The notes beneath the pieces are model-generated. The model was not told the origin of the DNA. It was given only the letters and a program-made list of their open reading frames with translations, and searched no databases. Below, one piece after another: positions 6,911-55,898 of a stretch of 64,000 nucleotides of DNA. Within the stretch, counting starts at the first letter, position 1. Every line of letters starts with the position of its first letter. This DNA comes from an uncultured bacterium. GTDB taxonomy: Bacteria > Patescibacteriota > Minisyncoccia > Moranbacterales > UBA2206. The position numbers and the translations under genes were made by a program. The stretch spans positions 72,786-136,785 of the forward strand of contig CAIKZD010000009.1 in NCBI GenBank assembly GCA_903831805.1. The letters run 5' to 3'.

Positions 6911-7873
6911 ATGAACTCGACAAGAAGAGCGTATCTTAAGGTGATAGGTAGTGCAGCTCTGCTTTTGCTATCCGGTTGCGGCGCGAAAGTATTAGAGATG
7001 CAAAAGGTCAACTTCGGGGCGAAAATGCCAGATAGTGGCGAAACTTTAGCGAGCAAATCAATGTTGGTTCTGCCTGACAGATCGTTAGGCTTGGAACCGA
7101 CGGAAGATGTCCGTCGAGGAAATACCTCGAATTTTTTGGAGTTTTTCCCGATGCGACTGTATGCCGGGGAATGGTTTCCAGGCAGGTTGCGTTGGGACAC
7201 TTGGACTATCGCTGCGGACGGTACAGAGCACTTTGGTCAGATAATTTTTTCCGGAATGCATCTCTCGGGACGCTATTCTGGAATTAATGTCATCGATGGC
7301 CAAGTGCGGTCTGGGACAACAGCCGTTCTGTCTACTGCGGTGGATTTTATCTATAGCCCAGTAGGCAAGGAGTTGGCGGTGGAACGCGAGAAGTTTATAA
7401 GCGATCCCCAGTATCGCCGGGAGAAAATCACGGCAGTGAATACGGCTAAGAATGGGGAAGTGATCAACCTTAGCTCGCTGACAAGAAATGATGATTTCAA
7501 ATGGTATGTCAAAGTGTGGAATCAGTTGAAAACCCCGGATGGATATTTGCTCGCGCCGTACGGATTGGAAGAAGTGGCAAAAATTCGCGGCATTAATCCG
7601 CAATATAGCTATTTCGAAAAGTTGGTCGGGACGGGCAAGTTTGCCGTTACTCCGACTGCCGATCCAGCGTCCTTGGCGATTGTCAACTCCATCGGAATCA
7701 TGATGGATATGATAAACGCGGCGGATGCGCCGTCGACTGGGTGGGATTTCGGTTCGCAAATCAGTCGCAGACAGGCAGGCTTTGTGACAGAATATGCCAT
7801 GCGCCTAGCTGAGAAAGAAATTCAAAAAAGAGATGATGCTAACGCTAGATTGTTAGCAAAGAAACCAAAATAA
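6911..7873 (+). CDS. lipoprotein, hypothetical
   Basis: Start chosen at MNSTRRAYLKVIGSAALLLLSGC (lipobox LSGC); the ORF-track start at 6857 lies upstream. Confidence 0.5.
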   Translation: MNSTRRAYLKVIGSAALLLLSGCGAKVLEMQKVNFGAKMPDSGETLASKSMLVLPDRSLGLEPTEDVRRGNTSNFLEFFPMRLYAGEWFPGRLRWDTWTIAADGTEHFGQIIFSGMHLSGRYSGINVIDGQVRSGTTAVLSTAVDFIYSPVGKELAVEREKFISDPQYRREKITAVNTAKNGEVINLSSLTRNDDFKWYVKVWNQLKTPDGYLLAPYGLEEVAKIRGINPQYSYFEKLVGTGKFAVTPTADPASLAIVNSIGIMMDMINAADAPSTGWDFGSQISRRQAGFVTEYAMRLAEKEIQKRDDANARLLAKKPK

Positions 7874-7899
7874 GCGCTCAAGGCGCTGGGAGGTAGGCT

Positions 7900-9498
7900 A
7901 TGAAAAGAGTTTTGTGGATCATGGCGATTCTTCTTTCGCTGAGCGCTTCAACGAGCGTTTGGGCGGGAGAGATTCGTCACAAAGTAGTTGATGGCGATTG
8001 CCTCGGAAAACTTCACGTGAGATATCATGTTCCCGTGAAAAGTATCCAGGAGCGCAACTATCTTGGCAATTCCACTGTCATTAAGCTGGGTTCTGTATTA
8101 TGGATCCCTGTGGTTGAGAAGACGGAGATTGCAAAGGTTAAAATTCAAACACCGGAAAAACCGGTTGCGAAAGCCGAAAAACCTCAGAAAGAAGTTGATA
8201 AAATTCGGCGCGGTGATGCAGTTGTATATTTGGGCATACGCAAGTATAACCCAGAGAACTCAGGGAGAGACAAGACTATATGCTCCCCTGGATTTGCGGC
8301 TTATTTGCTCGGCGTGATTCGAAAGGAGGATATAAAGGACACGAAAGTGATTCTTGACAGCCCCTATGACCCAGCCCCGATTGTTGATCCTAATAAACTT
8401 ATTCAAAAAGGAGATGAGTTTAAAATGACCTCTGGCCTGAATAAGGTTGGAGACTATGAGGCGGGTTTCAATTTTTTCGTTCAAGGTGCCAATGTCTATC
8501 TGCGAGATAAATTTATAACTCGTATATACTGGAGACCAAGTTGTGGCAATTGGATTCGGCACGAAGAAAAGCCAATTCCAACTTCGCCACCTGTTATCGA
8601 AGAAAAACCAACCCTTCCGCCAGTTACAGTAACTCCACCAGCTGAAGAACCACCCTCTATTTTTGTGAATAAAAAAGAAGAGGAAAGGATCTTGATAGAT
8701 CAGGAGTTGGATGTTGGCGGTGGACTGTGGCGAAATGATGATAATTCCGGCCAAGGGGGATGGTGGTTCCTTCAGTACAAATTATATCTCCACCAGTTGG
8801 AGACTGACTTTGCTGGCGGAACGCTTACTCCTGTAGTCGGCGCTTTTGCTCGAGGCGACTTGGGCAAAACAAATGCTGACTTTAAGTGGAACAATGCAGG
8901 TTTTGTTGGTCCACAAGCTGGAGAAATGTGGAATGCCCTGACTGATGCGGGATATCCGCAACAGGTGCAAGTAATGTTCCGTACTTTATGGGAACACTTG
9001 CACGGAGAAAATCCAACTTCGGGTTACGCAAAAACCGAAGATCATTTCCTCCTAGGACTCTACGCCGAGTATTTGCGACAATTCGCGCCAGATCTGATGC
9101 ATATTCTGTATGCCGAGGGTTGGACGGATGTTGCGAGCTCGTTCAAATCAACCTGGAGTGGCGACAAAGCCTCCAGCCGGACGTCTTTCGCGGTTGGCTA
9201 CAAACTTCACAAGCAGTGGAATGATGAGTGGGCCAGTCGTTTCGGTGTTAGTTTCGGTTGGGCCGAGCAAGACAGCAGATGGTCAGCTGGCGCGAACATC
9301 GAGATGCGGTATAATGATTGGCTCATGTTCGGACCAAGCCTGGATTATACCTTGGCATCAGCTATTCAAGGCGCGGCGGGCCACTTCTCTTATGGTCCAT
9401 TCGTTCGGGCTGAATTTCACGAGATTGTGAAGGAAGAACATTCCAAATCACAATCTGACGGAGTTCAACCGTCTGACAAGCCGCTAATCCTTTACTAA
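7900..9498 (+). CDS. secreted LysM-domain protein with proline-rich linker, hypothetical
   Basis: Signal peptide MKRVLWIMAILLSLSASTSVWA; LysM-like segment HKVVDGDCLGKL...IKLGSVLWIP; PTSPPVIEEKPTLPPVTVTPPAEEPP linker. Confidence 0.55.
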   Translation: MKRVLWIMAILLSLSASTSVWAGEIRHKVVDGDCLGKLHVRYHVPVKSIQERNYLGNSTVIKLGSVLWIPVVEKTEIAKVKIQTPEKPVAKAEKPQKEVDKIRRGDAVVYLGIRKYNPENSGRDKTICSPGFAAYLLGVIRKEDIKDTKVILDSPYDPAPIVDPNKLIQKGDEFKMTSGLNKVGDYEAGFNFFVQGANVYLRDKFITRIYWRPSCGNWIRHEEKPIPTSPPVIEEKPTLPPVTVTPPAEEPPSIFVNKKEEERILIDQELDVGGGLWRNDDNSGQGGWWFLQYKLYLHQLETDFAGGTLTPVVGAFARGDLGKTNADFKWNNAGFVGPQAGEMWNALTDAGYPQQVQVMFRTLWEHLHGENPTSGYAKTEDHFLLGLYAEYLRQFAPDLMHILYAEGWTDVASSFKSTWSGDKASSRTSFAVGYKLHKQWNDEWASRFGVSFGWAEQDSRWSAGANIEMRYNDWLMFGPSLDYTLASAIQGAAGHFSYGPFVRAEFHEIVKEEHSKSQSDGVQPSDKPLILY

Positions 9499-16721: not shown

Positions 16722-16809
16722 CCTTTGTCATTCCCGCGTAGGCGGGGAATCTAGTGTAAAAACTTAGAAATTTGCGACTGGATTCCCGTATACACGGGAA
16801 TGACAAAGG
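16722..16809. repeat. MITE-like palindromic element, family C (TIR CCTTTGTCATTCCCG / CGGGAATGACAAAGG)
   Basis: 88 bp with perfect 15-bp terminal inverted repeats and two internal hairpins; related copies at 21987, 40396 and 43549. Confidence 0.8.
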
Positions 16810-20475: not shown

Positions 20476-20615
20476 AGATTAATAAATATCAAATTTCAAA
20501 TGACAAATGACAAATAAATTTCAAAATCAAAATGTCAAAAATTATTTTAGGAATTGGAAATTTATCATTTCTAATTTATTTGAAATTTGATATTTGTAAT
20601 TTGGAATTTCGCTTT
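20476..20615. repeat. AT-rich palindromic repeat, family D (CAAAT/ATTTG-rich)
   Basis: AAATAAATTTCAAAATCAAAATGTCAAAAATT... palindromic; near-identical block at 46541-46660 and a related one at 36080-36175. Confidence 0.6.
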
Positions 20616-21992
20616 TTATTCCGTGTGGACTTTTTCCAGCGATTTAAAGGTGGTGGAGTTTTCGTTGAAATAGAGGGACATGCGGCCGACGGGGCCATTT
20701 CGGTGTTTAGCGATGTGGACTTCGACGATGTTTTTGTTGGGCGTGTCGGGTTTTTCGCGATCTTCGCGGTAGAGGAACATGACAATGTCGGCGTCCTGCT
20801 CGATGGAACCGGATTCGCGGAGATCAGACAGTTTCGGAATTTGCGGGCTGCGGGATTCCACAGAACGAGATAACTGGGACAAAGCAATGATGGGAATGTT
20901 GAGCTCGCGGGCTAATTGTTTCAAGGCGCGGGAAATTTCGGACACTTCGTTCACACGATTGTCACCTCCGCCGCCGCGGCGGCCTTCCATGAGTTGTAGA
21001 TAGTCAATAATGATCACGCCGACATTATGTTCGGATTGCAAGCGCCGCGCCATCGTGCGCATTTCCATCACGTTGGCGCTTCCTGCGTCATCGATGTAGA
21101 TCGGAGCTTCTGAAAGCACGCCCATGGCGTCCCCGATGCGTTGGAAGTCATTATCGCCGTCACCGGTCTTGAGGCGGCCGGTCCTAAGACGCCACAAATC
21201 CACCCCTGATTCCGCGGCCAACATCCTGTCGACCAACTGGTCGGAACCCATTTCTAAAGAGAAAATGCCGACGGGAATTTTTTCTTTGACGGCGATCTGG
21301 CGGGCAAAATCCAGCGCCAGAGTGGTTTTTCCGATGGAAGGGCGCGCCGCCAGAATGATCAAATCTGATTTTTGGAAGCCGGCCAGAATGCCGTCCAGAT
21401 CAGGATAACCTGACGGCACGCCGCGCAACTTATGGTCGCCCTTATGCAACTCATCGATGCGATTGAAAGCGGATTCCAAAATGGATTTGATCGGCACGAA
21501 ATCTTGCTTGATGAATTTTTGTGAAACAGCAAATAGTTTTTGTTCGGCTTCGTCCAGAATTTTTTCCACGTCCTCGCCTTCTTCATAACCCAGACTGACA
21601 ATTTCTGAAGCCGCCAAAATCAATTTGCGCAGAGTAGATTTTTTTTGCACCACTTTGGCGTAGTGCACGATGTTAGCACTGGACGGCACGCTGTTCACCA
21701 GTTCAGTCAGATAACTGGAACCACCCACAGCGTCCAGTTTGTTTTTTTCCTCCAAGCGATTGGACAGCGACAGCACATCAATTGGCTCGCGTTTTTCATA
21801 CAGCTCAATCATGGCTTCATAAATGAGATTGTGATCATCGCGATAGAAATCACCTTGGCGAATTAAGTTGGCAATCTTGATCACTGCATCCTTATCCAGC
21901 ATCAAAGACCCTAAAACTGATTTTTCAGCTTCGATGTTTTGTGGCGGGAGCTTGATATTTTCGTTAGAGTTTTTGGCCATAAAAGTTGTCAT
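20616..21992 (-). CDS. dnaB: replicative DNA helicase DnaB
   Basis: PPQNIEAEKSVLG N-terminal motif, Walker A GARPSIGKTT, DnaB C-terminal helicase motifs. Confidence 0.95.
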   Translation of the reverse strand: MTTFMAKNSNENIKLPPQNIEAEKSVLGSLMLDKDAVIKIANLIRQGDFYRDDHNLIYEAMIELYEKREPIDVLSLSNRLEEKNKLDAVGGSSYLTELVNSVPSSANIVHYAKVVQKKSTLRKLILAASEIVSLGYEEGEDVEKILDEAEQKLFAVSQKFIKQDFVPIKSILESAFNRIDELHKGDHKLRGVPSGYPDLDGILAGFQKSDLIILAARPSIGKTTLALDFARQIAVKEKIPVGIFSLEMGSDQLVDRMLAAESGVDLWRLRTGRLKTGDGDNDFQRIGDAMGVLSEAPIYIDDAGSANVMEMRTMARRLQSEHNVGVIIIDYLQLMEGRRGGGGDNRVNEVSEISRALKQLARELNIPIIALSQLSRSVESRSPQIPKLSDLRESGSIEQDADIVMFLYREDREKPDTPNKNIVEVHIAKHRNGPVGRMSLYFNENSTTFKSLEKVHTE

Positions 21993-22125: not shown

Positions 22126-23127
22126 TTATGCACACAGAATTGTTTCGATTTCCTCCAAACTTTCCGCCATGACTAATTTTCTTCGCAGTTCTGAGGCACC
22201 CGGAAAACCCTTGACGTACCAGGCCAAGTGCTTTCTCATTTCGAATTTGCCAGTGTCGCCTTTGTCGGCATAAATTAATTTGGCGTGTTCAAGCATAATG
22301 TTTTTGATGTGGGAGAAATCATAGGCTTCTCCTGTAGAAACAAAACATGCGCCGTCATTGAGATGGGTATTTTTAATGCTATTAAAAATCCACGGCTGGC
22401 CCCAGGCGCCGCGGGCGATGCCGAGACCGTCGAGAGTCGGATAATCATGTAAAGCTCTCACACCATCGGCCGCAGAATTGATGCCGCCATTGGCCAAAAC
22501 AATTTTGTCCGGAATAATTTTTTTTATTTCTTCGACAATCCTGAAATCTACTTGGCCAGAAAAACCGCCTTCGTATGTCCGGCCATGCACCATGACAGCC
22601 GAATAGGGGAGGTCTTTGGTATTTTCGATAAATTCCAAGGCCGTCATATCCCTTAAACCAGCCCGGATCTTAATCGACACTGGCAAATCTGTGTTATCAC
22701 ACACGGCGGAAATGATTTCGCGCGCTAATTCCTTTTGCGGCATCAAGGCGCAACCACTGCCATGCCCGAAAACTTTTTTGGCCGGACAGCCAAAATTGAT
22801 ATCGAGCCCGTCAATTCGCAACCCCTCCCCAGCCCTCCCCTGAGTACAGGGGAGGGGGCGAGAAAGAATGCGTGTCGCCTTGGCAAAATGCTGCGGGTCT
22901 TTGCCAAAAAGCTGCACCACGTATGGTCGCTCGCTGGCATTGAATTTGACCAACTCTAAAGTTTTTTCCGGCTTAAAAAAAAGCGCGGAAACGCTGGCCA
23001 TTTCACTGTACACCACATCCGCCCCGTAGCGCCGACAAATTTCCCGGAAAGCGCTGTCCGTAATGCCGGCCATAGGAGCAAGAGCGAGAATAGGTTTATT
23101 GAGTTGAAACCAAAAATTATTTTTCAT
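22126..23127 (-). CDS. dus: tRNA-dihydrouridine synthase (contains in-frame 38-bp palindromic insertion)
   Basis: LAPMAGITD, DINFGCPAKKV and FMN-binding TIM-barrel motifs; the insertion encodes PLPCTQGRAGEGL. Confidence 0.9.
   Translation of the reverse strand: MKNNFWFQLNKPILALAPMAGITDSAFREICRRYGADVVYSEMASVSALFFKPEKTLELVKFNASERPYVVQLFGKDPQHFAKATRILSRPLPCTQGRAGEGLRIDGLDINFGCPAKKVFGHGSGCALMPQKELAREIISAVCDNTDLPVSIKIRAGLRDMTALEFIENTKDLPYSAVMVHGRTYEGGFSGQVDFRIVEEIKKIIPDKIVLANGGINSAADGVRALHDYPTLDGLGIARGAWGQPWIFNSIKNTHLNDGACFVSTGEAYDFSHIKNIMLEHAKLIYADKGDTGKFEMRKHLAWYVKGFPGASELRRKLVMAESLEEIETILCA
22822..22859. repeat. GC-rich palindromic element, family E, copy 1 (in-frame in dus)
   Basis: CCCCTCCCCAGCCCTCCCCTGAGTACAGGGGAGGGGG; reverse complement matches copies at 31373 and 31978. 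Confidence 0.85.
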
Positions 23128-23147: not shown

Positions 23148-23305
23148 GTCGTCATCCTGAGCGGAGTGATTCGCCGTTAAGGCGAAGAACGCAGTCGAAG
23201 GATCTGCGTTCCATTATTGCTAGTAATATTATATTCACAAAACCACTGGTAATACAAGGCAGATTCTTCGACTTCGCCCGAGTACGGACTTCGCTCAGAA
23301 TGACA
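23148..23305. mobile_element. MITE-like element, family A (about 157 bp, TGTCATCCTGAGCG...CGCTCAGAATGACA)
   Basis: Long imperfect palindrome with terminal inverted repeats; copies at 41119, 45638 and 55059. Confidence 0.85.
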
Positions 23306-23313
23306 GACTATTT

Positions 23314-30339: not shown

Positions 30340-32358
30340 TTACGTGATAGAGATCGGGTCGATATCGATTATCCAGCCGGTACCCAATTTTTTGAGTTCA
30401 ACTATTAATTTTTCGGGAATAAATTTGCTTTTACATTTGATGATTATTTGTCTTCTGAATCGGCCTCTGATTTTCGGGACGAAAGCCTCTTGCGCTTCGG
30501 TCACTTTGGTATCCGGTATGCTTTGCATGACAGTGGAAACTTTTTCCGTTTCAACTTCAGTTTTCCGGGCATCATAATCCTGAAAAACCAATTTAACGAG
30601 ACGTCCGAAGGGTGGAAAGGAGAGGGCTTTTCTTTCGGCTATTTCAAACTGAAAAAAAGCTTCATAATTTCGTTCCGCACTGAACCTGATTGATTTGTTT
30701 TCCGGTTGATAAGTCTGGATCACCACACTGCCGGGAAACTTCGCGCCGGGTCTGGCCACGCGGCCGGAGACTTGCACGATATTTTCATAAAACTTTTCTC
30801 CAGCCGAAAAATCAGGGATAGAAAGAGCATTATCCGTATCTATTATACCAATCAACGCGACATTCGGCAAATCCCAGCCCTTGCTGATCATTTGCGTCCC
30901 GATCAAAATATCGATCTGGCGCGCGGAAAATTCTTGGTATATTTTGGCTTGATACGCCGCTTCTTTGGCGACCTGACTATCGAGGCGCGCCACGCGAGCG
31001 CTCGGGAAAAGATTTTTGATTTCTTTTTCCACTTTCTGTGTGCCCAGTCCTACATTTTCAAAAATAATGCCCTTACATTTCGAACATTGCGGTGTGATGG
31101 ACGTTTTATAGGCACAATGCAAACAGCGGTAGTGACCCTTTTGATCATAAGCCAGCGAACGGTCGCATTTCGGGCATTTTAAAACAGTCTTACAGCTCTT
31201 GCAAACCGAAAAGCTGCTCATGCCCTGGCGATTGATGAAGAGAATCGTCTGCTGGTCATATTTCAGCGCGTAAGCAATTTCACTTTTTAGCTTTTTACTT
31301 ATACATGAGTAATTCTTCGCCCAGCGCTCTTTTTTCATGTCGACGATGACGGTTTGTGGAGAATTTGTATTGCCCCCTCCCTTGTAATCAGGGGAGGGCT
31401 GGGGAGGGGTTGTTAGGTGGGGCAAATCCAAAAGATTCATCTCTTTTTCATTTTTTGCTCGCCAATATGTTTCCACTGCCGGCGTAGCGCTTCCGCGCAC
31501 GATCGGACATTTATTAATCTCCGCCAACTTTTCTGCTACGGTGCGCGCATCATAACGTGGATTCATATCCCATTGTTTGTAGGACATATCCTGCTCTTCA
31601 TCGATAATGATGAGTCCCATTTTTTGGAACGGGGCAAACACCGCCATGCGTGTGCCGATAATGATTTTGGCCTGGCCGGATTTAACACGTTGCCAATAGC
31701 CATAGAACTGCCCCTTGGTGATATTACTACTGAGCATTACGATTTCTTCTGGCGGAAAATATTGTCCATAACGCTCCAGTGCTTGCGGCGTCAAAGTTTT
31801 TTCCGGCACTAGAATCAAAAATTGCGCATCAGGCTTTTTCTTTTTAATGGCTAAAATTGAATGAATATATACCTCAGTCTTACCTGATCCGGCCGGACCG
31901 AAAAGCAAGTATTTTGTATTTTGTTTTGCAATTTTATTTACGGCTTCTTGTTGCTCTTCCGTGAGGACAATACTCACGCCCCCTCTCCTGTACTCGGGAG
32001 GGGGTTGGGGAGAGGGTCTGCGGGTTTTCGTCCGCGCCGGCACAAAACTTTTCATCACAATCCCAAGCGGGGATATATAGTAATCTGAAATAAACTTAGC
32101 CAACTCAATCTGATCTTCCGTCAAAAAATCTTCTTCCAAAACTTCTTCGATTTTTTTTAATTCAATATTACCCAATCTTTCAAAATCTTTCCGCACCCCC
32201 AAAACAATTCCTTCAACCGTGCGGCGGAAAAGGGGAATGGACACGAGAGTGCCAACTGACAATTTCTTTTCTGATAGATAGGAAAAAGACTGACTGCCGC
32301 TCATGGGCAATTTGGTCAGCGGCACGATGTCGAGAATGAATTTTTTGGATTTAGGCAT
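30340..32358 (-). CDS. priA: primosomal protein N' (PriA helicase) with two in-frame palindromic insertions
   Basis: Walker A GPAGSGKTEV, DEAH-like IIDEEQD, Cys4-Cys4 zinc-binding region (CKSCKT...CPKCD...CLHC...CSKC). The insertions encode PSPQPPPEYRRGG and PPQPSPDYKGGGN. Confidence 0.95.
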   Translation of the reverse strand: MPKSKKFILDIVPLTKLPMSGSQSFSYLSEKKLSVGTLVSIPLFRRTVEGIVLGVRKDFERLGNIELKKIEEVLEEDFLTEDQIELAKFISDYYISPLGIVMKSFVPARTKTRRPSPQPPPEYRRGGVSIVLTEEQQEAVNKIAKQNTKYLLFGPAGSGKTEVYIHSILAIKKKKPDAQFLILVPEKTLTPQALERYGQYFPPEEIVMLSSNITKGQFYGYWQRVKSGQAKIIIGTRMAVFAPFQKMGLIIIDEEQDMSYKQWDMNPRYDARTVAEKLAEINKCPIVRGSATPAVETYWRAKNEKEMNLLDLPHLTTPPQPSPDYKGGGNTNSPQTVIVDMKKERWAKNYSCISKKLKSEIAYALKYDQQTILFINRQGMSSFSVCKSCKTVLKCPKCDRSLAYDQKGHYRCLHCAYKTSITPQCSKCKGIIFENVGLGTQKVEKEIKNLFPSARVARLDSQVAKEAAYQAKIYQEFSARQIDILIGTQMISKGWDLPNVALIGIIDTDNALSIPDFSAGEKFYENIVQVSGRVARPGAKFPGSVVIQTYQPENKSIRFSAERNYEAFFQFEIAERKALSFPPFGRLVKLVFQDYDARKTEVETEKVSTVMQSIPDTKVTEAQEAFVPKIRGRFRRQIIIKCKSKFIPEKLIVELKKLGTGWIIDIDPISIT
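31373..31409. repeat. family E GC-rich palindromic element, copy 2 (in-frame in priA)
   Basis: CCCCCTCCCTTGTAATCAGGGGAGGGCTGGGGAGGGG. Confidence 0.85.
31978..32017. repeat. family E GC-rich palindromic element, copy 3 (in-frame in priA)
   Basis: CGCCCCCTCTCCTGTACTCGGGAGGGGGTTGGGGAGAGGG. Confidence 0.85.
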
Positions 32359-40309: not shown

Positions 40310-40395
40310 AATATTTTCTGAAAATGTATTTTTGATTAAAATAATTTATTCGTTCTACTTTTTTATTATTTTTGTGAAAATAGAAAGTGAGTTAT

Positions 40396-40441
40396 GAATC
40401 AATTATCTTATACACTAGATTCCTGCCTACACAAGAATGAC
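40396..40441. repeat. family C MITE-like half element
   Basis: ACACTAGATTCCTGCCTACACAAGAATGACA matches the right half of the 43549 element. Confidence 0.55.
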
Positions 40442-40665
40442 ACGGAAAAACGACCTCCAAAATTGAGCTGTGAGCGATTTGGCATCTTATGAGATAGATA
40501 TACCTATATGAGATTAGGCCAAAGAGAGGGGCTAATTATACTAGATAAGCATCTTAGCTAGGTTAAGCCTAGAAAGGCTTTAAATGGAGTTTAAATAATA
40601 CTCAGTGTCGCATAACCTACATTATGCGACGTCCTATCTATTTCTCCATCCCTCTCCCCTAGACT

Positions 40666-41109: not shown

Positions 41110-41118
41110 AATATAAGT

Positions 41119-41275
41119 TGTCATCCTGAGCGGAGTGAGTCGCCAACGAGGCGACGAACGCAGTCGAAGGATCTGCTATGCATTACCACAAGCATTGTGA
41201 TTTATAGTAATACTAGTGATTACACAAAGCAGATTCTTCGACTTCGTCCGAGTACGGACTTCGCTCAGAATGACA
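41119..41275. mobile_element. family A MITE-like element between iscS and iscU
   Basis: TGTCATCCTGAGCGGAGTGAGTCGC...GCAGATTCTTCGACTTCG...CGCTCAGAATGACA. Confidence 0.85.
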
Positions 41276-41282
41276 TAGTTAG

Positions 41283-43521: not shown

Positions 43522-43548
43522 TAGTTGTCTTGTATATTATACTTAACT

Positions 43549-43629
43549 TGTCATTCCCGTGAAAACGGGAATCCAGTCGCAAATCATTAAGTTTCTACAC
43601 TAGATTCCTGCCTACGCAGGAATGACAAA
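43549..43629. repeat. family C MITE-like element
   Basis: TGTCATTCCCGtgaaaaCGGGAATCCAG...CTAGATTCCTGCCTACGCAGGAATGACA. Confidence 0.8.
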
Positions 43630-43646
43630 TTAAAAGTAATAGTTTT

Positions 43647-45290: not shown

Positions 45291-45475
45291 TGGAGACCCT
45301 GGAAGGATTTGAACCTCCGACACATTTCATCGAATCTATCTGTTATTTTCTTTGGATTTATCGCGCGATTCAATCCAAACAGAATTACAGATACTTCAAT
45401 AAAACTCGCCTACGCGGTACTTTGCTTGGCGTCCGGATTATCATTCCGGTGCTCTACCGATTGAGCTACAGGGTC
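45291..45475 (-). tRNA. tRNA-Ile (anticodon GAT) gene interrupted by a 109-nt insertion between anticodon arm and T-arm
   Basis: 5' part GACCCTG-TA-GCTCAATCGGTAGAGC-A-CCGGA-ATGATAA-TCCGG (45475..45433); 3' part GTGTC-GGAGG-TTCAAAT-CCTTC-CAGGGTC-T-CCA (45323..45291). Acceptor halves are perfectly complementary; the insert spans 45324..45432. Confidence 0.7.
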
Positions 45476-45620: not shown

Positions 45621-45637
45621 TTTTTGTCAACTATTTC

Positions 45638-45794
45638 TGTCATCCTGAGCGGAGTGAGTCGCTGACGAGGCGACGAACGCAGTCGAAGGATCTGCCAGAG
45701 GTTACCGCAAGACTTGCGATTTATAGGAAAACTAATGGTTACACAAAGTAGATTCTTCGACTGCGCCCGAGTACGGGCTTCGCTCAGAATGACA
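45638..45794. mobile_element. family A MITE-like element
   Basis: TGTCATCCTGAGCGGAGTGAGTCGC...CGCTCAGAATGACA, 157 bp. Confidence 0.85.
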
Positions 45795-45820
45795 GTTCTT
45801 TTAAAATACAGGGACAAGAA

Positions 45821-46540: not shown

Positions 46541-46660
46541 GTTGTGTGCAATTTCAAATATCAAATTACAAATGTCAAATAAATTTCAAAATCCAAATGT
46601 CTAAATTTTTTTTAATCATTTAGTCATTAGGATTTTATTTGAAATTTGGATTTTGTCATT
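46541..46660. repeat. AT-rich palindromic repeat, family D
   Basis: AAATAAATTTCAAAATCCAAATGTC...GACAAAATCCAAATTTCAAATAAA; paralog of the 20476-20615 block. Confidence 0.6.
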
Positions 46661-46671
46661 GGGCTTTTTTA

Positions 46672-54242: not shown

Positions 54243-55898
54243 TTAGTTTTCTGCTTGCGCGGCCGCTAACCACACCCACAAAAATCCCAAGAATATCCCT
54301 GCGTTAAACAGATTGAAAACAACCAATCCGAACCATCCAACTATTATAAAGAGATGCCATGTTTTTGACAATTGATTGGTAGCGTAAAAATAATGTTTGA
54401 CGGCCTGGAAAATAATATAGCCTAAGAGAAAAACTAGCGCCAAAAAACCTATGATACCCGCCCCAAGCCAGGTTTCTAAAAATATATTAGACGAATTAAG
54501 GAACACTCCGCGTCCATCGCGTCCCAGCAGCGGACCAATACTCCCCCAACCGATGCCAGCTACCGGATGATTCTTGATTTCAGCCCAAGACTTTTGATAG
54601 ATTTGCGAGCGCACGTTTACGTTTGGATCGGGACGTAAAATTTCTGTCACAAATTTCCCCGCCGTTTTTTCTTTCTCAATATCTTCCAGGTTGATATGGC
54701 GACAGCTATATTTTTCTAACTCCTCTGTGTTATCTATTTTTTCCGGCAAATTCTCATCCTTGTCGCAACTCACCGTAATTTTTTGCTCGCCTGTGCCGGT
54801 CGACTGTACGCGATTGAAAAGTTGAAAATTGCTCAGATGGAAAACATAAATAACAAGAATAGCTACAACCAAAGAAGAAACTATTTTCAACTTCAGAAAA
54901 CTGGTTTCTTTCCATCGCCAATTTTTAAACTTCAGATCAGTGAAGAAAATCAAAACGAAAATAATATACGTCGCCATGGCCGCCAGCCAAGCGGAGCGGG
55001 AAACGGTGAGAATGAGAAGGATGTATGAAATGGTCAGCAGGACATATAAAAATATTTCTGTCATCCTGAGCGAAATGACGACGCGATAGCGGAGGAATGC
55101 AGTCGAAGGATCTGCGATATATTCATCACTAGTAGTATTCAATGGCAGATTCTTCGACTTCGCTACGCTACGCTCAGAATGACAATTGCATAGCAATGCG
55201 TAAATGAGCGTTATCACTAGTACGACAAAAGCGCCTAACCAATCCGCTTCCGTAAATGTGGCATTCGGCCGCCCGAGCATCGCTTCGAAAGACTGACCAT
55301 TATGTAGAAAGATAATATTTTGCCACAGGCCATACAACATCACAACTATGGCCGAGCTCAAGAAAAATGGCACGGTTCTTTTGGCGTCGGCAGTAGTCTG
55401 GATATAATTTCTGACTAAGAAATACAGAATGACGAACGTGATGAAAATTATTTCCAATTTTAAACTTGCCATTTTGTCCGGCGAAAAAATTGCGCCCAGC
55501 AATCCGCCAATGGCCATCAAGATCACGGCATAATTTGGAATTTTCAGTTTAGCTAATTTGAAATTCAAGCGGCCACTCACTAGCCGCGCTAAAATCGCTA
55601 CCACTAAAATTGCCCCGATGAATTGATACGGCCGAATAGTAAGACCCAAACTCACCGGTGCTAAATTGATATTTTCCAGCGGCACCATCCCGCAAAAAAG
55701 CAAAAACGCCCAACTCGGCCGCCACAGCGCAAAAGCCAGCGCCAAAATCGAGAAAAAAACAAAATCCCCCAATTGCAGCGGGATTACTTGGAAATTACTA
55801 AGGATAATCAAAAAGAAAACCACAAAAACATTCACCAAAACCAGCCAGTTTTTGGGCTTGTTAAGGTTGTTGACAAATTGCTGCAAATAACTAATCAT
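54243..55898 (-). CDS. O-antigen ligase/polymerase-like membrane protein carrying an in-frame 126-bp MITE insertion
   Basis: Polytopic; ligase-like SSNIFLETWLGAGIIG motif. Residues about 238-279 (CHSERSVAKSKNLPLNTTSDEYIADPSTAFLRYRVVISLRMT) are encoded by the family A element. Confidence 0.6.
   Translation of the reverse strand: MISYLQQFVNNLNKPKNWLVLVNVFVVFFLIILSNFQVIPLQLGDFVFFSILALAFALWRPSWAFLLFCGMVPLENINLAPVSLGLTIRPYQFIGAILVVAILARLVSGRLNFKLAKLKIPNYAVILMAIGGLLGAIFSPDKMASLKLEIIFITFVILYFLVRNYIQTTADAKRTVPFFLSSAIVVMLYGLWQNIIFLHNGQSFEAMLGRPNATFTEADWLGAFVVLVITLIYALLCNCHSERSVAKSKNLPLNTTSDEYIADPSTAFLRYRVVISLRMTEIFLYVLLTISYILLILTVSRSAWLAAMATYIIFVLIFFTDLKFKNWRWKETSFLKLKIVSSLVVAILVIYVFHLSNFQLFNRVQSTGTGEQKITVSCDKDENLPEKIDNTEELEKYSCRHINLEDIEKEKTAGKFVTEILRPDPNVNVRSQIYQKSWAEIKNHPVAGIGWGSIGPLLGRDGRGVFLNSSNIFLETWLGAGIIGFLALVFLLGYIIFQAVKHYFYATNQLSKTWHLFIIVGWFGLVVFNLFNAGIFLGFLWVWLAAAQAEN
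55059..55184. mobile_element. family A MITE-like element, shortened copy (126 bp = 42 codons) inside CDS
   Basis: TGTCATCCTGAGCGAAATGACGACGCG...CGCTACGCTACGCTCAGAATGACA; no stop codon in the host frame. Confidence 0.8.

Follow-up and report, generated by a model that had tools for sequence, protein, structure and literature searches.

In-frame copies of a short GC-rich repeat of the BoxC/PIT/TMECO type in priA, dus and other housekeeping genes of Moranbacteria-type bacteria

Introduction

Rickettsia palindromic elements (RPEs), as summarized in PMC10969869 (Ogata et al. 2000, 2002), are repeats of ~150 bp that form ten families, are restricted to Rickettsia, and, in R. conorii, lie within open reading frames (ORFs) in about half of the cases. 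Another group of short repeats, named BoxC, then PIT and then TMECO, has the potential to form an intrastrand triplex (Holder et al. 2015, PMC4666352). Here we analyze a GC-rich element that occurs three times, in frame within priA and dus, in a 64,000-nt stretch of contig CAIKZD010000009.1 from an uncultured bacterium of the Moranbacteria type; this whole stretch is called the window below. We consider it likely that the three segments are copies of a selfish, non-autonomous, GC-rich dispersed repeat that is tolerated in coding DNA.

TMECO is represented by 3610 copies in 262 proteobacterial genomes, and local genomic instability has been associated with its loci (Holder et al. 2015, PMC4666352). 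Nuclear magnetic resonance showed that the strand, when isolated, folds into a stable triplex in vitro; no triplex was observed in vivo or in duplex DNA. TMECO has neither promoter nor terminator activity and has not been linked to a transposon, and the copies in E. coli K-12 are always intergenic (PMC4666352).

Results

Three related GC-rich segments are present in the window, two within priA and one, inverted, within dus, as a preliminary description of this DNA had proposed. The host genes and the copies, with their parts as read on the plus strand, are:

30340-32358, minus strand: priA (primosomal protein N'), 672 aa; hosts copies 1 and 2
22126-23127, minus strand: dus (tRNA-dihydrouridine synthase), 333 aa; hosts copy 3
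31373-31409 (with TT, to 31411), plus strand in purine-arm (R) orientation: copy 1, CCCCCTCCCTTGTAATCAGGGGAGGGCTGGGGAGGGG; parts CCCCCTCCCT / TGTAATCA / GGGGAGGG / CT / GGGGAGGGG / TT
31979-32016, plus strand: copy 2, of a diverged subfamily, CCCCCTCTCCTGTACTCGGGAGGGGGTTGGGGAGAGGG; parts CCCCCTCTCC / TGTACTC / GGGAGGGGG / TT / GGGGAGAGGG
22820-22858, plus strand in pyrimidine-arm (Y) orientation: copy 3, the canonical 39-nt unit, reverse complement CCCCCTCCCCTGTACTCAGGGGAGGGCTGGGGAGGGGTT; parts AA / CCCCTCCCC / AG / CCCTCCCC / TGAGTACA / GGGGAGGGGG

Both ORFs are open across all three copies, with no stop codons, in agreement with the read-through claimed earlier. Because both genes lie on the minus strand, the priA mRNA has copy 1 in the C-rich orientation, encoding TTPPQPSPDYKGG (PriA residues 319-331), and the dus mRNA has copy 3 in the G-rich orientation, encoding PLPCTQGRAGEGL (Dus residues 91-103). 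Copy 2 encodes RPSPQPPPEYRRGG (PriA residues 114-127), and these residues are part of the linker that leads from the 3'-DNA-binding domain (Pfam PriA_3primeBD) to the helicase domain. A 37-mer search of the window that allowed up to three mismatches matched copies 1 and 3 and gave no match in 100 shuffles, and a repeat search paired the same two copies over 41 nt at 95% complementarity; the identity of copy 2 to copies 1 and 3 is 0.79-0.84 in hand-delimited units. Neither looser searches nor a generic three-arm finder located a fourth copy in the 64-kb window. Pfam scans of PriA and Dus returned host domains only, and an Rfam scan of the window returned no family at the element copies. The GC content of the element (76%) is within the 70-80% range given in the preliminary description, but its surroundings, said there to be AT-rich, are only moderately so (43.5% GC for the window). 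The PriA homologues carry the names Moranbacteria, Parcubacteria or Patescibacteria.

The repeat, initially taken for a 38-bp palindrome, is 37-39 nt long and is not a plain palindrome. It is composed of three arms, CCCCTCCCC, a loop, GGGGAGGG, CT and GGGGAGGGG, such that a homopyrimidine arm is followed by a loop, a complementary homopurine arm, a spacer of 2-3 nt and another homopurine arm, the mirror image of the first one. By inspection against the published definition, these Y-R-R arms satisfy the mirror rule for a purine-motif triplex, for which we used a pyrimidine arm, a Watson-Crick purine arm and a mirror purine arm with stems of at least 8 nt, no more than one mismatch and short loops. 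With CTG as the second loop, copy 3 has eight perfect triads (G.G:C / A.A:T) in the arrangement CCCTCCCC / GGGGAGGG / (CTG) GGGAGGGG; copy 1 has one mismatch, and copy 2 has one to two mismatches with outer arms that are perfect over 8 bp. Loop lengths are 8 nt for the first loop, or 4 nt should two additional pairs form, and 2-3 nt for the second. The purine half, GGGGAGGG-CT-GGGGAGGGG, is a canonical four-tract G-quadruplex motif, and long variants in related loci contain an additional small hairpin of ~10-20 nt between the two like arms. Folding, a check suggested in the preliminary description, returned a hairpin and nothing else under the nearest-neighbor model; its C-rich arm can pair with either G-rich arm, and the z-scores were spread from -0.4 to -3.7.

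On the basis of its sequence, the element is a member of the described BoxC/PIT/TMECO class of potential intrastrand-triplex repeats (PMC4666352). It shares with TMECO a unit of ~37 nt (C-rich arm, loop, G-rich arm, short loop and mirror G-rich arm), dispersal as many near-identical copies that occur singly or as adjacent pairs, the lack of an associated transposase, and a G-rich half that could in principle form a G-quadruplex. It does not match the exact TMECO pattern, CCCTCNCCC-N3-6-GGGNGAGGG-N3-GGGNGAGGG; with arms CCCCTCCCC/GGGGAGGG and loops of 8 and 2 nt, it belongs to the wider G/C-rich class and not to TMECO sensu stricto. The element also differs in its host, a Patescibacteria-type organism, and in its location: in contrast to the always intergenic E. 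coli copies, ~93% of the copies described here are in genes and are read through.

A metagenome scan with a pattern for the subfamily returned 87 stretches, and in low-GC contigs (GC fraction 0.34-0.46) a near-invariant 39-nt unit, AACCCCTCCCCAGCCCTCCCCTGA[G/T]TACAGGGGAGGGGG, was present at 25 distinct sites. A pattern-independent three-arm finder run over 393 kb of low-GC loci of the Moranbacteria type yielded 41 copies, a set that was de-duplicated by hand and in which some orthologous sites remain; 38 of the 41 are deep inside long ORFs and three are apparently intergenic. The in-ORF share fits an assumed coding density of ~90% (P=0.40), indicating that genes are neither avoided nor preferred. 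None of the 38 in-gene copies contains a stop and all keep the frame; if the sites were independent, the probability of this outcome would be (5/6)^38 = 0.001. Identity between copies from different genes and genomes is 0.95-0.97, synonymous positions included. Upstream, most copies are flanked by (C)AA; downstream, CA(A/G) is present in about half of them, and the flanks also have a semi-conserved pyrimidine tract.

Host genes identified with Pfam encode PriA, Dus, the NAD-dependent DNA ligase LigA (at several sites), IleRS, the CCA-adding/poly(A) polymerase, Fpg, TilS, Tgt, GalT/HIT, FemAB, Fe-hydrogenase, reverse transcriptase and a DUF559 protein, and the gene for a HypF/Kae1-like protein contains four copies. 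The reverse transcriptase (RVT_1) genes, on low-GC contigs L183 (2068-3162) and L200 (387-1451), have the copy within the reverse transcriptase domain (PLPNPPLSTGEG). The canonical unit is stop-free in five of its six frames, the sixth having a TGA. In-gene copies use four of the five open frames and occur in both orientations (TPPQPSPEYRGGG, PLPSPPLSTGEG, PLPCTQGRAGEGL and PSPVLRGGLGRG), and none uses the TGA-containing frame. As a protein query, one such peptide reached an E value of ~170 in a local test, and a 13-column profile would be expected to reach ~1-6.

Metagenome contigs often end within or at the element (L001 13260-13297; the ends of L133, L156, L132 and L197), as expected of a multi-copy repeat, which suggests that short-read assemblies are broken by it.

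Comparison with orthologues places the peptides in variable loops. Both insert positions are hypervariable when 29 PriA proteins are aligned. The same type of peptide is present in the closest relatives (75-80% identity) and in a few proteins at 59-69%, and their DNA also contains the three-arm element. Most PriA orthologues have either nothing at these positions or another kind of palindromic insert, decayed copies are present in some, and at the copy 2 site orthologues have variant elements at the same place. In Dus, the site occupied in the window (site A) is also filled in related locus L004 and is empty in L005 (84% identical) and L007 (75%), and the L004 protein has a further copy at a second site where the window Dus has none. 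LigA, too, has a site that is filled in one genome but not in another; tandem and decayed copies are also found in LigA. These filled and empty sites bear out the earlier proposal that the peptides are lineage-specific insertions.

The proposed location in loops also holds. In the AlphaFold model of the window PriA (mean pLDDT 81.5), pLDDT falls below 50 exactly at residues 114-127 and 319-331, both modeled as coil; the model has low confidence at one more stretch, residues 256-267, but this region is conserved and is not one of the inserts. When aligned, E. coli PriA (6dcr) lacks 12 residues at the second insert (319-331), and T. maritima Dus (1vhn) lacks precisely the 13 residues of PLPCTQGRAGEGL. 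As judged from the predicted model and the alignments to solved structures, the inserts occupy disordered loops.

Other repeats use such loops as well. In L007, the dus gene (20665-21681) has in its second variable loop a different repeat of the TGTCATTGCGAGC...GCAATGACA type, in frame, encoding CHCEHSEAIS...LAMT, which indicates that several element families use the same permissive loops. Long AT-rich palindromes (AAATTTCAAATGACAAAT...) are present in the window in two copies (20484-20609 and 46550-46668), and similar ones are read through in PriA and LigA loops of orthologues, encoding peptides such as KFKIQNSKF and LQISNKIQN.

The motif class extends beyond Moranbacteria-type bacteria. The pattern CCCTCYCY N7-9 GGGAGGG N1-4 GGGGAG matched at least 120 stretches in species-representative genomes, with Bradyrhizobium, Xanthomonadales, Burkholderiales, Nostoc, Calothrix, Deinococcus, Chloroflexota, Pirellulaceae, Clostridia, Bacteroidaceae and others among the matches listed, and the consensus across phyla is CTCCCTCCCCC-loop-GGGGGAGGG-YY-GGGGAGGGG. 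Open-frame length was rejected as a test of coding versus intergenic location in high-GC genomes, given that the copies in Bradyrhizobium locus L126 are in a 1164-codon open frame yet upstream of UvrB domains; we therefore relied on moderate- and low-GC loci only. In these, copies in other phyla are in short open frames (35-113 codons, compared with background medians of 200-900), and outside the Moranbacteria type the motif is mostly between genes. Apparent in-frame copies were seen in two proteobacterial proteins, an AcrB-family transporter (PSPLAGEGQGEG) and a FecR-TPR protein, in which the copy is between the two domains of a 1113-aa ORF. The coordinates of the proteobacterial read-through cases are:

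L015, 4241-6088
L034, 1902-5240

Additional features of the window are:

1-944: 3' part of a 16S rRNA gene (Rfam SSU_rRNA_bacteria, model positions 596-1533)
45294-45475, minus strand: Rfam tRNA match (53 bits) with anticodon loop AUGAUAA (GAU, Ile) and an insertion of ~110 nt in the variable-loop region (model positions 44/45); not called by ARAGORN
23148-23306, 41117-41276, 45636-45795 and 55050-55187: four intergenic copies, two of them full length, of a MITE-like repeat of ~157 nt with ends GTCATCCTGAGCG...CGCTCAGAATGACA and 78-88% identity over shared segments of 68-69 nt
16746-16806, 43548-43641 and 40363-40442: a second MITE-like family, TTGTCATTCCCGTGAAAACGGGAATCC...AGATTCCTGCCTACGCAGGAATGACA, in which one pair is 90% complementary over 61 nt

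Discussion

We propose that a repeat has spread to many sites in a Moranbacteria-type lineage and has not been purged from genes. Its unit is a multiple of three (39 nt, 13 codons), is stop-free in five of six frames and encodes a flexible coil, properties that would allow it to survive in genes. Where a copy lands in a surface loop or an inter-domain linker, it would simply be translated as 12-13 extra residues of coil rich in Pro, Gly and Ser. The insertions are most likely neutral or slightly deleterious, and we infer that the element is selfish rather than useful. Candidate routes of copying include structure-directed single-strand transposition in trans and, with no transposase involved, template switching or gene conversion between copies, but any one of these deserves far less confidence than the proposal that the segments are copies of a selfish repeat.

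Several observations weigh against this proposal. No transposase or other copying machinery linked to the element was found. No clear target-site duplication was apparent in the flanks of the 25 copies, and the orthologues with empty sites are highly diverged or have other elements in the loop concerned. Translation of the inserts is a step that we infer. Triplex or G-quadruplex formation is a potential read from the sequence of the element, and for TMECO the triplex was demonstrated for single strands in vitro only. Lastly, when the window is compared with L004-L007, identity is 0.43-0.52 at third codon positions of priA, which is near saturation, but 0.82-0.92 for the element at orthologous PriA sites, making a purely neutral, decaying insertion unlikely unless copies are homogenized or re-inserted. 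The conservation would thus point to recent or repeated insertion out of a conserved source, to homogenization among copies, or to selection on structure.

The last of these leads to a different explanation, to which we give a small chance, namely that the element is kept by selection as a nucleic-acid structure in ORFs, either as an mRNA pause hairpin at domain boundaries or as a triplex or G-quadruplex signal for replication, recombination or repair, with the peptide as a by-product. The units could then be maintained, structured ORF elements (co-translational pause sites or replication/repair signals); alternatively, and with the same small chance, they could spread by an undescribed, structure-directed and transposase-free copying. 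Either would explain high conservation against saturated synonymous sites. Besides that conservation, selection on structure is consistent with the co-variation of the arms between orthologues (for example, CTCTCC/GGAGAG versus CCTCCC/GGGAGG), the position of both PriA inserts exactly at domain junctions, and the conservation of the motif across phyla. However, most PriA orthologues lack the element, and some have decayed copies, which argues against a universal constraint, or unrelated elements in the same loops. Both orientations are used, such that the mRNA may be C-rich or G-rich; the E. coli relatives had no promoter, terminator or in vivo polymerase-blocking activity in published tests (PMC4666352); and concerted evolution or re-insertion would account for the conservation as well.

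Mobilization by a RAYT, a Y1 transposase of the HUH type, acting on the copies as REP-type elements would fit a GC-rich hairpin repeat of 20-40 nt, yet we regard it as quite unlikely. REPs and BIMEs resemble the element in being short GC-rich hairpin repeats that are sometimes clustered, but they have a GT[AG]G head and are extragenic, whereas the consensus of the 25 copies starts with (C)AACCCC, ends with GGGGG(CA) and has no GTAG or GTGG head, and its copies are intragenic. A related Moranbacteria contig, L006, does encode a Y1_Tnp protein (IS200-like; 7526-8101, 27.6 bits against a cut-off of 23) with an HYH motif. Inverted REP-like hairpins of its own lie on either side of this gene (7471-7496 and 8137-8162; CCCCGC-TTTA-GCGGGG, with GTAG), and the 7471-8162 region looks like a RAYT/REP system whose sequence is unrelated to the triplex-type element. 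No other Y1 homologue was found in the window or the other loci examined. Because the one Y1 gene has different REPs, a RAYT link to the element was set aside.

It is very improbable that the inserts are assembly chimeras, or that they are removed or bypassed before or during translation, as byp elements or introns would be. The repetitive nature of the element and its frequent position at contig ends, as noted above, would fit such a reading, and GC-rich hairpins in genes of AT-rich mitochondrial genomes can be bypassed by ribosomes. The identical 672-aa PriA, inserts included, is nevertheless encoded on at least 14 contigs, with the DNA read from three samples under different accessions; this excludes a chimera. 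Bypassing or excision would not require the inserts to preserve the frame and lack stops, but all 38 in-gene copies do both, and the broken frame or internal stop that would mark a byp-like element was found in none of them.

Hardly credible is the idea that the Pro/Gly peptides are selected protein linkers whose shared sequence makes the DNA look alike: the peptide TPPQPSPEYRGGG does recur in many proteins, but the same DNA is read in four frames and two orientations into unrelated peptides, which rules out a selected peptide and led us to reject this idea, and the element is also found between genes, both in the Moranbacteria-type group and in other phyla, with a nucleotide identity of 95-97% between genes that spans synonymous positions.

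The selfish repeat that we favor can be compared with two groups of elements known to enter coding sequence. The preliminary description called the insertions RPE-style, and in behavior the likeness is real: like RPEs, the element looks selfish, is in frame in many unrelated housekeeping genes of a host with a small genome, and is found at positions, here loops, where the peptide is compatible with the fold. It is not a member of the RPE family, as it is 39 nt long, is unrelated to RPEs in sequence, is built as a triplex-type motif, encodes a Pro/Gly coil and belongs to another lineage, with a Moranbacteria/Parcubacteria-type host. The in-frame ERIC and MITE fusions (Delihas 2007, cited in PMC10969869) similarly involve small mobile repeats that are occasionally read through. 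They are sporadic, are at least 100 bp long and have terminal inverted repeats, in contrast to a 39-nt element for which residence in genes is the rule.

The element had been thought undescribed for this type of organism. That view stands for its in-gene habit in the candidate phyla radiation and fails for the motif class, which is known and widespread across phyla. A literature search for in-gene copies, or for such repeats in candidate phyla radiation bacteria, found no paper, and a search with sequence strings of the element found no match. Routine in-frame residence in Moranbacteria-type housekeeping genes appears to be undescribed.

If the pattern holds genome-wide, then repeats capable of forming non-B DNA, known only as intergenic curiosities of E. 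coli, would be a routine component of genes in a lineage of the candidate phyla radiation, and the Rickettsia-type phenomenon of selfish DNA in coding genes would have arisen a second time, independently, in another group with reduced genomes. The element would provide a natural experiment on the tolerance of protein loops for 13-residue Pro/Gly inserts. Annotation, alignment and assembly of these genomes also call for caution, since the repeat breaks contigs and orthologues differ in length. Finally, it would raise the question of how a motif is copied without a known transposase.

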